Positions 9,846 through 12,432 of a stretch of 18,475 nucleotides of DNA are shown one piece after another. Both the position numbers and the translations under genes were made by a program. Origin of the DNA: Pseudomonas phage sp. Where the stretch lies: the sequence record OQ658366.1. One strand, 5' to 3'. The notes below the pieces were generated by a model. It had not been told where the DNA came from. It saw only the letters and a program-made list of their open reading frames with translations, and did no database searches. Position 1 is the stretch's first letter. Each line of letters starts with the position of its first letter.

Positions 9846-9875
9846 TTAATGAAAAACCCCGCACGGGGCGGGGTT
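9846..9875 (-). terminator. terminator-like hairpin between fiber chaperone and sheath genes (8-bp stem AACCCCGC/GCGGGGUU, then UUUUCAUU)
   Basis: Base pairs are 9855-9862 with 9868-9875. The gpG stop codon is inside the stem. Only 43 nt separate the gpG stop from the sheath ATG. Confidence 0.55.
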
Positions 9876-10315
9876 CAGGGGGTGATGAGCGGTTCGAGCC
9901 ACAGCGGCGGCTCGGGTCTTGCGCCTAAATCAGGAAACGCCGCGGATGCCGGCCAGTCTCGAAGGCTGGCGCGGTACAGCGTGAGTTCGAGCAGTTGCGC
10001 CTGGTTCAGGGTCGTAATCTTGCCCAGGTCGAGCTCATCCCGGTGACGGGCGATGGGGCCATCAGTAAGCGTCAACTGGCGATCGCGCCAGATGCGCTCA
10101 CGGTGGGCCAGAACCTCTTCTGCCGGGGCCGGCGGGTCGATACAGAACGGACGGCCGGCGGCGTCGGCGACGATCTGCTTGCCCTCGCTCTGGGCTACCA
10201 ACAGCGCCAGGTATTCAGCTTCCTCGAGGGGATACATCCGCGCGTCGATGGGCATGCGGTCGCCGTGGACATCCTTCGAATAGAAACCGCCAGTGGCGGC
10301 ATGGAAAAAAATCAT
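9875..10315 (-). CDS. tail fiber assembly chaperone (P2 gpG-like, 146 aa)
   Basis: It lies immediately 3' of the tail fiber gene and has a GAGGTGA RBS. The size and position match R-pyocin fiber chaperones. Confidence 0.85.
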   Translation of the reverse strand: MIFFHAATGGFYSKDVHGDRMPIDARMYPLEEAEYLALLVAQSEGKQIVADAAGRPFCIDPPAPAEEVLAHRERIWRDRQLTLTDGPIARHRDELDLGKITTLNQAQLLELTLYRASLRDWPASAAFPDLGARPEPPLWLEPLITP

Positions 10316-10323
10316 GGGTCACC

Positions 10324-12432
10324 TCAACAGCCAATGGCCACAAGCCTGATCGCATAGTTCTGGACCGCACCGTGATACTCGGTAGCGACAATCACACACC
10401 CCGTGGTGCTGACGCTGACATCTGCGAGGGTGACGGTCGATGCCGACGTCGCCGGCCGCCCCAGTTCCTTGACGCTCGGCACCACGTGCAGGCAGGTAGT
10501 GGGAAACGCGATCGGAAAGGTCAGCGAGCGGTTGACGATTCCACCCGGATGATCGCCGACACTCACTGTCATCCACTGCACGATGAGTCCTGTATCGTTA
10601 TCCTTCCACCAGCCATTCAGCGATCGGTTCGCCGTCGCGGGAACCCCAGCCCCGATATTGTTGCGCGCCCCCGCTGCCGTATTCGAACCAAGACCGCCGC
10701 GCGCCAGAGGCAGGATGCCCGACGTGATCTGGGCGGCGTCGTGGTTGTGGCCAGTAGGCGGAAAGGTCGCCGGCTTTCCTGGCAGGGCGGCCCACGTAAA
10801 GCCACTTTTCAGCAGATAGTCGTTCGGATTGAAGTCCGCCCCATGCCATACACGCCGCCATGGATACCAGGTGTTGGTGTAGCGGCAACGAAAATAGAAC
10901 CCTTCACCGTCGTAAACCTGGTATGTCTGGTAGATGAAATTGGTGCCTGCATTATGCACTTGAAGCAAGCCGGCCCGGGGGACCGGGTAGTTCGCCCCAC
11001 TTTCGGCCTGTGCATTGGCCGTCTGGTACCACCATCCCGACGTGATCAGCGAGTTGAGATTGACCGCACCGCCCAAGGCCCCGTCCGCCTCCTTGCTGAA
11101 CGAACCACCTATGTCGCAGCGCTTCCAGGGCAGCCAGTCCCGGGCGCTAGGGTTGGCCGCGTAGGACACCCGTACATACATCTCGGATGTAGCGTTGTAG
11201 CTCGTTGCAATCTGCGAAGCATTGCCGTTCTGATCCGGATAGAACATCGACTGGATGTAGAAGTACCGTCCGGCAACAGGTCCGTTCGCATGATTGGTCA
11301 GCATCAACGGCACGGTCGCGGTGTTCGGATCGCTAGTGGTCGAGACAGCAGTAGCCAACCCGCGCGCGAATACCGGCAAACGCTGCTCGGCCAGCACCCC
11401 GCTGACCAACTTCGAAGCATCCAGCCCGGGAATGTCCGTCGCCGCCAGCGCCATTCCAGCAGTCACCCTTCCTTTCGTATCCACGGTCACCTTCGGATAG
11501 CTGCCCGCTGCCACACCGGTAGCGGAAAGACTCAGCGGCGCAGAAACATTGGCACTGCCGTCGAAGGTCACCGACCAGGAGGCATCGCCACTGGCTGCCA
11601 GGCTACGCGGTGCGGCCAGCCTGCTGGATGACACGGCGTTGCCATCGACTCGCAGCGCATCGGTGATGCCATAGCCGGCCAGGGTGGTGGCCTTGTTCGC
11701 TTTCTGCGCCAGTTTTCCGTCGGTATCGGCCTTGGTATAGGCATCTCCGATCGCATAGCCGGCCAGGGTGCTCGGATTGCTGCCCTGGGTGACCACCCCG
11801 TTGGCGTTCACCGTGACCGAGCGATAGCTGCCCGCCGTCACGCCGGAAGGCGCCAGGCCAATGCTGCGGTCGGCAGAAAGATCGCCCCCACCGACCAGGC
11901 CATTGCCAGCCAGAATCTTGCGGCCCTTGAAATCGGCAGCGACCTTTTCCTTCACCCAGTCCTGAGTGGCGTAGATGATGCCGTTGTCGATCAGCAGCTG
12001 GACATTCTCCAGGCCGGAGAGCGCGATGTTCACCCGAATGGTCTGGGTCCGCGCACTGCCACTTTCCATTGCAGCTTTGTAGCTGGGCGGGCAGTTGGAT
12101 ACCGCGACGAACTTGCCGTCGGCATCCTGCAGGCCGATCTCGCGGATCCAGAAGCCACCTACCTCAACTGGCAGCACCACCTCGGCAACCAAGGTATTGG
12201 CGTTCTTGTCGGAAACGAACAGCCGATTCAGCTGAGCCCGATGGCGTTGGTTGATCAGGCTCTTCTGCGCCGCAGAAGGCAATGGATCCGGCGTGTCGCC
12301 CGGCGCACCGCCGGCATCGCCGATCAGCATATGAGTCGGCTGCCATTTCTTGCCTGCTGCGCTGGCCGCAGCCAGCGCAGCGGCACCTATGTCGGTGAGC
12401 AGGCCACCGTATTTCGGAGTATTGGTCGTCAT
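10324..12432 (-). CDS. R-type pyocin tail fiber protein (P2 gpH-like receptor-binding fiber, 702 aa)
   Basis: The translation starts MTTNTPKYGGLLTDIGAAALAAASAAGKKWQPTHMLIGDAGGAPGDTPDPLPS, a conserved N-terminus. The C-terminal region is Gly/Ser/Thr/Asn/Trp/Tyr-rich. The start overlaps the gpI stop. Confidence 0.9.
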   Translation of the reverse strand: MTTNTPKYGGLLTDIGAAALAAASAAGKKWQPTHMLIGDAGGAPGDTPDPLPSAAQKSLINQRHRAQLNRLFVSDKNANTLVAEVVLPVEVGGFWIREIGLQDADGKFVAVSNCPPSYKAAMESGSARTQTIRVNIALSGLENVQLLIDNGIIYATQDWVKEKVAADFKGRKILAGNGLVGGGDLSADRSIGLAPSGVTAGSYRSVTVNANGVVTQGSNPSTLAGYAIGDAYTKADTDGKLAQKANKATTLAGYGITDALRVDGNAVSSSRLAAPRSLAASGDASWSVTFDGSANVSAPLSLSATGVAAGSYPKVTVDTKGRVTAGMALAATDIPGLDASKLVSGVLAEQRLPVFARGLATAVSTTSDPNTATVPLMLTNHANGPVAGRYFYIQSMFYPDQNGNASQIATSYNATSEMYVRVSYAANPSARDWLPWKRCDIGGSFSKEADGALGGAVNLNSLITSGWWYQTANAQAESGANYPVPRAGLLQVHNAGTNFIYQTYQVYDGEGFYFRCRYTNTWYPWRRVWHGADFNPNDYLLKSGFTWAALPGKPATFPPTGHNHDAAQITSGILPLARGGLGSNTAAGARNNIGAGVPATANRSLNGWWKDNDTGLIVQWMTVSVGDHPGGIVNRSLTFPIAFPTTCLHVVPSVKELGRPATSASTVTLADVSVSTTGCVIVATEYHGAVQNYAIRLVAIGC

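Follow-up and report, generated by a model that had tools for sequence, protein, structure and literature searches.

A tail fiber and chaperone gene pair, the probable R5-type specificity module of a Pseudomonas aeruginosa R-pyocin

Introduction

R-pyocins are contractile, phage-tail-like bacteriocins, and the genes for their tail fiber (prf15) and its chaperone (prf16) were reportedly first compared across the subtypes R1 to R5 by Williams and colleagues in 2008. Here we describe such a gene pair in 18,475 nucleotides (nt) of DNA recorded under Pseudomonas phage sp. (OQ658366.1). This whole stretch is called the window below, and all positions refer to it. A first-pass annotation of its letters had pointed to a tail fiber of 702 amino acids (aa) and a chaperone of 146 aa, probably of a subtype other than R2. 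Our analysis indicates that the two genes most probably form the specificity module of a Pseudomonas aeruginosa R-pyocin belonging to subtype R5.

The closest described systems are the R5 pyocin of strains E429 and TuD199, the R1 fiber PLES_06171 of strain LESB58 (structures 6CL5 and 6CXB), the R2 fiber PA0620 of strain PAO1 (6CL6 and 6CT8) with its chaperone PA0621, and the tail fiber genes H and G of P2-like phages such as phiCTX. Buth et al. (2018) worked with constructs of residues 323-691 of the R2 fiber and 323-701 of the R1 fiber, and they group R1 and R5 together as "R1-like" (PMC6116203). The receptors reported are L-rhamnose for R1 and D-glucose for R5, and the domain Knob2 is given at least as much weight as the terminal foot in setting the killing spectrum (PMC6116203). 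For genotyping, Mei et al. (2021) published multiplex primers for R1, R2 and R5; those for R5 were derived from strain E429 and have an expected product of 601 bp (PMC8262887, Table S1).

Results

The fiber and chaperone genes

The pair consists of two genes on the same strand, each beginning with ATG:

10324-12432, minus strand: R-pyocin tail fiber gene (homologue of PA0620/prf15), probable R5 genotype, 702 aa; recognised by Protein Data Bank (PDB) matches, exact R5 primer sites and domain identities
9875-10315, minus strand: cognate tail-fiber assembly chaperone gene (homologue of PA0621/prf16), 146 aa; recognised by PHROG 188 and by identity to the R1 and R2 chaperones

A listing of open reading frames (ORFs) with their translations reproduced exactly the coordinates and lengths that the first-pass annotation had given. 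The exact 702-aa protein occurs in 3838 blocks of a public assembly collection, which places this allele among the commonest fiber sequences in P. aeruginosa genomes. Its top matches among solved structures are the R1 fiber 6CL5 (E 1.6e-202) and the R2 fiber 6CL6 (E 1.3e-179), and it carries the Pfam domains Phage_tail_fib, an N-terminal tail-collar fiber domain (aa 7-158, E 1e-47), and Gp53-like_C (aa 613-701). The 146-aa protein belongs to PHROG 188, tail fiber assembly protein (E 1.9e-34). In Pfam it scores slightly under the curated cut-offs of both PF16778 (Phage_tail_APC, 24.0 bits against 26.6) and PF02413 (Caudo_TAP, 21.0 bits against 22.1), and no relative of it was found among solved structures. 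Because the exact fiber is present in so many blocks and because of the PDB, Pfam and PHROG matches, we take both ORFs to be real genes rather than chance reading frames. Family membership and a position directly downstream of the fiber identify the smaller gene as a tail fiber assembly chaperone of the P2 gpG / lambda Tfa-like kind.

The six genomes with an identical fiber all encode the same chaperone protein, and in a chromosomal locus of P. aeruginosa (GCA_019686475.1, here L001) both genes are identical to those of the window in nucleotide sequence. The names given by the protein database are generic ("phage tail protein") and bear no subtype labels. The fiber stop codon and the chaperone ATG are separated by an 8-nt spacer, GGTGACCC, and a Shine-Dalgarno-like GAGGTG motif overlaps the fiber stop codon upstream of that ATG. 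Such a junction is typical of translational coupling.

Assignment of the subtype

In-silico matching of the published typing primers placed R5-Forward exactly at 10995-11016 (minus strand) and R5-Reverse exactly at 10416-10437 (plus strand), which together define one product:

10416-11016, no strand assigned: in-silico R5 typing amplicon of 601 bp, the published size; both primers exact

The R2 primers have no site within 3 mismatches in the fiber and chaperone region of the window. The R1 primers target the chaperone gene and fit it with 1 mismatch at the 3'-terminal base (forward) and 2 mismatches near the 3' end (reverse). Three large clusters of P. aeruginosa fibers exist, of 702, 701 and 691 aa, and the loci of the representatives of the latter two served as controls for R1 (L008, 701 aa) and R2 (L007, 691 aa). 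There the R1 primers matched L008 exactly with a product of 441 bp and the R2 primers matched L007 exactly with a product of 257 bp, both as published, and the R5 primers found no site in either control locus.

Alignment of the fiber gene by megablast, an independent check, gave a concordant signature. Against R2, the window gene shows 87% coverage with 10 gaps at 90.8% identity, where the published comparison of R5 from E429 with R2 gives 87% coverage, 10 gaps and 89.5% identity (PMC8262887). Against R1 it shows 63% coverage with 0 gaps and 22 mismatches to L008, and the published values for E429 are 63% coverage, 0 gaps and 55 mismatches, with PAK as the R1 reference (PMC8262887). Since the R5 primers match exactly and yield 601 bp, the R2 primers have no site, the R1 primers are mismatched, the controls behave as expected and the alignment signature is that of R5, we assign the pair to subtype R5, with a probability of roughly 0.93 that it is the specificity module of an R5-type R-pyocin. 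By primers and alignment signature, the variable region agrees with the E429/TuD199 genotyping reference, and the chaperone is distinct from those of R1 (75% identical) and R2 (42%).

The features that would mark the R2 subtype (the R2/R3/R4 group), namely a C-terminal region about 98% identical to PA0620 of PAO1, a length of 691 aa and a 257-bp product, are not seen in the window, and neither are those of R1, namely a C-terminal match to PAK or LESB58, a length of 701 aa and a 441-bp product. The first-pass annotation was thus right to set R2 aside: the C-terminal 273 residues of the fiber are 64% identical to R2, where identity with the PAO1 fiber would have spoken against its view, and the foot is 42% identical. 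The comparison of the C-terminal fiber region and chaperone with R1 and R2 that it had proposed shows divergence from both, and it was the primers and alignment signature that supplied the name R5. The fiber lengths it gave also hold, with 691 aa for R2 of PAO1 and 701 aa for R1 of LESB58 (PMC6116203), and with 702 aa for the third large cluster. We found no explicit published statement that R5 fibers have 702 aa, and a search of the prf15/prf16 literature added nothing on lengths.

Domain anatomy and the variable cassette

With domain limits taken from Buth et al. (PMC6116203), the identities of the window fiber to the R1 and R2 control loci are as follows:

Residues 1-322: 99.7% to R1, 99.1% to R2
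Rod: 100% to R1, 97% to R2
Knob1: 94% to R1, 94% to R2
Knob2 (residues 440-528): 52% to R1, 72% to R2
Shaft: 81% to R1, 81% to R2
Lectin-like foot (residues 599-702): 80% to R1; 42% to R2, with 11 gap positions

Residues 1-439 are thus 94-100% identical to both fibers, and the C-terminal 273 residues are 71% identical to R1. The window fiber has a foot that is "R1-like" but a Knob2 that is nearer to R2. Its HxH iron site (His562/His564) and Mg site (Val597/Asp613), located after PMC6116203, are conserved. At the nucleotide level the fiber gene and its downstream border divide into three parts:

11165-12432, minus strand: conserved 5' region of the fiber gene, encoding about aa 1-423, with the attachment domain, proximal shaft, Rod and Knob1; 97-100% identical to both R1 and R2 in 60-nt windows
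10324-11164, minus strand: variable region of the fiber gene that encodes the receptor-binding part (about aa 424-702), with Knob2, the Shaft with its metal sites and the foot; marked by the drop in nucleotide identity
9848-9876, minus strand: GC-rich hairpin and U-run that lie between chaperone stop and sheath start; folding energy -16 kcal/mol (z -2.4)

Within the variable part, 60-nt windows are 53-83% identical to R1 and 30-80% to R2. Up to fiber nt ~1270 (window ~11165) the three subtypes agree at 97-100% identity, and they become identical again at the chaperone gene's end (~9858), so that the specificity cassette covers about 1.3 kb (window ~9860-11165). The first-pass annotation had called the N-terminal ~400 aa a conserved baseplate-attachment region. 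Conservation indeed reaches residue ~425-430, but residues 1-164 suffice for attachment in chimeric fibers (PMC6116203), and that description merges the attachment domain with a conserved shaft.

The hairpin coincides with the 3' edge of the cassette and stands at the position of the G|FI operon boundary of P2. It is found in all three subtypes; the R1 and R2 loci share its stem exactly, and only the loop varies. It looks like an intrinsic terminator within the cluster.

Comparison with the known systems

The pair resembles the R5 pyocin of E429 and TuD199 in its exact R5 primer sites and 601-bp product, in its alignment coverage and gaps against R1 and R2, in its 702-aa fiber and 146-aa chaperone and in its chromosomal locus. 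It differs from E429 in that the 5' two-thirds of the fiber gene seem nearer to the PAO1/PAK allele. The R1 fiber PLES_06171 has the same succession of Rod, Knob1, Knob2, Shaft with HxH iron site and lectin-like foot, is 88% identical overall and is accompanied by a chaperone of equal length, but it has 701 rather than 702 aa, and Knob2 (52%) differs in length by 1 residue. The R2 fiber PA0620 shares 94-99% of the N-terminal 439 residues, has a Knob2 nearer to that of the window than R1's is, and has metal sites at the same residue numbers. It differs in its length of 691 aa and in a foot that is 11 residues shorter; moreover, the R2 chaperone PA0621 is 42% identical, and the R2 fiber and chaperone genes overlap where the window has a spacer. 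The P2-like phages, represented by phiCTX, share the gene order I-H-G followed by sheath and tube as well as the families of the fiber N-terminus and chaperone. Unlike them, the pyocin cluster lacks genes for a head or for replication, and identity to phiCTX in the receptor-binding part is 49%.

Allele variation and other fibers

Within the conserved part of the gene, fiber aa 45-80 (window 12193-12300) are PAO1/R1-like in the window, reading GDTPDPLPSAAQKSLINQRH...KNANT, and the representative of the 702-aa cluster (P0001) reads GATPDPIPAATQTKLINQRY...KNINT. This polymorphism suggests that the conserved part has itself recombined, independently of the subtype cassette, and the P0001-type variant is probably also present in E429. 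Published R5-typed strains fall into two classes of full-gene identity, ~99.8-100% and ~98.1-98.2% (PMC8262887). The 5' allele difference and these two classes fit recombination around a mobile specificity cassette.

Length also varies among other fibers. Two R1-type fibers of 673 aa (P0004 and P0005) are without 28 residues between two copies of a TLAGY(A/G)I(G/T)DA motif in the proximal shaft, probably through a repeat-mediated in-frame deletion. Among P0011 to P0099 are large clusters of P. aeruginosa fibers, of 774-809 aa, that align only partially to the window fiber, some at ~67-70% over about half of the fiber and others at ~50% over about two-thirds; P0071, with 609 member sequences, is an example. 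They may belong to prophages or to untyped tailocins.

The surrounding cluster

Gene functions around the pair were read from the Pfam gene tables of matching loci:

2005-16833, minus strand: rest of the R-pyocin cluster; collinear with L001, all genes open
17291-18061, plus strand: prtR; Peptidase_S24/HTH in Pfam on identical loci, ORF intact
18161-18475, plus strand: prtN; PyocinActivator in Pfam on identical loci, ORF intact
1-1657, minus strand: trpG (1052-1657) and trpD; from the gene tables of matching loci

The window is collinear with L001 at 99.86% identity without gaps and is 99.1-99.4% identical to five other genomes. All 24 of its genes are open and full-length, with start and stop, and the R-type pyocin cluster is intact. 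In the direction of transcription it runs ptrB, PA0613, holin, PA0615, V (spike), W, J, I (baseplate), fiber, chaperone, and then sheath, tube, tail assembly chaperone (TAC), tape measure, U, X, D, lys, a PA0630-like gene and a PA0631-like gene. Its location is that of R-pyocins, which lie in the chromosome between trpE and trpG together with prtN and prtR: the window has prtN and prtR on one side and trpG and trpD on the other, and in L001 trpE adjoins prtN. Its gene set is likewise that of an R-pyocin, with a complete contractile tail, a holin and a lysin and with neither capsid nor replication genes. F-type pyocin genes are absent from the cluster: the PA0631-like gene (2005-2262, minus strand) is followed by a 347-nt spacer and then by trpG on the same strand. 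R-only loci are a known arrangement, and in PAO1 F-type genes follow the R genes (2025 review, PMC11871291).

Some further observations concern the flanks of the cluster. Upstream of the holin gene lie ATTG repeats, ATTGCAGTGGATTGTTGAGAAGGCATTGCCGGG, at window ~15909-15957 and ~16160-16190 (minus strand). We take these to resemble the P box bound by PrtN and regard them as putative sites of that kind. A hairpin with a T-run lies 3' of PA0613. In another genome (GCA_028073755.2, here L003), which carries the identical fiber, the match to the window begins only at the 5' end of the holin gene (called there at 149 aa; window ~15831), and ABC-transporter genes stand upstream (locus positions 1-6601) in place of trpE, prtN, prtR and ptrB. 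These upstream genes point to a rearrangement that has separated the structural genes from their regulators. An ORF of 449 aa (659-2008, plus strand) runs antisense to trpG and trpD; it is most likely spurious, since such frames are common in DNA with a GC content of 65%.

Discussion

Several points weigh against the assignment to R5. The subtypes R1 to R5 were originally defined by killing spectrum, which is not readable from sequence. The R5 call itself rests on primers designed on E429, on published alignment figures and on the exclusion of R1 and R2. In addition, aa 45-80 of the fiber are PAO1-like and the gene has 22 mismatches to R1 where 55 were published for E429, a difference to be read with the change of R1 reference from PAK to L008, and the full-length gene may not be the E429 allele. 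Finally, that the cluster would yield bactericidal, DNA-free particles on SOS induction is a prediction from its genes.

If the pair were instead an R1-type fiber and chaperone, or a variant of R1, it would bind L-rhamnose of the lipopolysaccharide (LPS) core and have the narrow R1 spectrum. We consider this very unlikely, although the resemblance to R1 is real: the best PDB match is the R1 fiber 6CL5, the foot and chaperone are 80% and 75% identical to those of R1, both chaperones have 146 aa, the R1 primers come within one and two mismatches of a match, and Buth et al. place R1 and R5 in one "R1-like" class (PMC6116203). Against this reading, Knob2 (52% identical), which Buth et al. give the greater weight for the spectrum (PMC6116203), and the C-terminal 273 residues as a whole (71%) depart from R1. 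R1-typed strains also form the separate 701-aa cluster, the R5 primers match with the right product size here and are absent from the R1 locus, and the mismatches of the R1 primers fall at or near their 3' ends. The mixture of an R2-like Knob2 with an R1-like foot raises another explanation, in which the fiber is a recent recombinant with a further, unnamed specificity and a receptor range unlike that of classical R5. The domain mosaic exists, the N-terminal allele probably differs from that of E429, and a few strains do carry R-pyocin fibers outside the known types (Mei et al. 2021, PMC8262887). Identities of 72% for Knob2 to R2 and 80% for the foot to R1, however, reflect old divergences and not a recent chimera. 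The two primer sites, which reach from Knob2 to the foot, are exact and so is the amplicon length, the coverage and 10 gaps against R2 equal the values published for E429, and an allele found in 3838 blocks fits mainstream R5, a sizeable group in the databases (PMC8262887). We therefore judge this second explanation highly improbable.

It is hardly conceivable that the gene belongs to a phiCTX/P2-like prophage and is not a bacteriocin component. The fiber and chaperone families are common to P2-like phages and phiCTX is the nearest phage match, but phage matches are 49-56% identical over the C-terminal region, and the cluster lies between prtN/prtR and trpG, holds tail, holin and lysin genes without capsid, replication or integrase genes, and matches the pyocin loci in P. 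aeruginosa chromosomes at 99.9% identity. Among the phage genomes searched, none had an R5-like receptor-binding region, and the nearest were phiCTX and BR319a at 49% over the whole region. A recent phage origin of the cassette was rejected on that ground.

With the pair read as the R5 specificity module, its function would follow that described for other R-pyocins. The 702-aa protein would form a homotrimeric fiber whose conserved N-terminal part plugs into the baseplate and whose distal part, consisting of Knob2, the iron-containing shaft and the lectin-like foot, would bind a sugar that other strains of P. aeruginosa carry in the outer core of their LPS. From the literature on R5, we infer that this sugar is an outer-core D-glucose and that it differs from the receptor of R2. 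The 146-aa protein, translated directly downstream, would let the C-terminal part of its cognate fiber fold and trimerise. The first-pass annotation had the fiber's C-terminal third and the chaperone together set receptor specificity; the chaperone is indeed cognate and required for fiber folding, but binding specificity is not determined by it (review, PMC11871291). Drawing again on published work, we expect DNA damage to lead to RecA-driven cleavage of PrtR and to de-repression of prtN, whereupon PrtN would switch on the cluster. Particles would then be assembled and released by holin and lysin, and fiber binding would trigger sheath contraction and depolarisation of the target-cell membrane. 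For this locus, the receptor, the broad R5 spectrum, the dependence on the chaperone and the regulation are thus all carried over from the literature.

Of the five subtypes, R5 reportedly kills most broadly, with a spectrum that includes those of R1 and of R2 to R4. Given the mosaic of a PAO1-like proximal region, an R2-leaning Knob2 and an R1-leaning foot, one could imagine that Knob2 and foot each bind a different LPS-core sugar, so that the broad spectrum would come from two sites and not from a single deeper receptor. We think this unlikely, but if it were true, this common allele would be a natural template for domain-swap tests of specificity.

The R5 subtype is already known and is one of three genotype groups in routine use, so that the finding is no novelty and leaves current understanding unchanged. 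Lineages of clinical importance, among them ST235 and ST175, have been linked to R5 (PMC11871291). For annotation, the comparison means that about 1.3 kb of sequence is enough to tell the subtype. The R subtype in turn predicts which P. aeruginosa strains are killed and which pyocins the producer likely resists, knowledge that is useful for studies of strain competition and for the choice of therapeutic pyocins.

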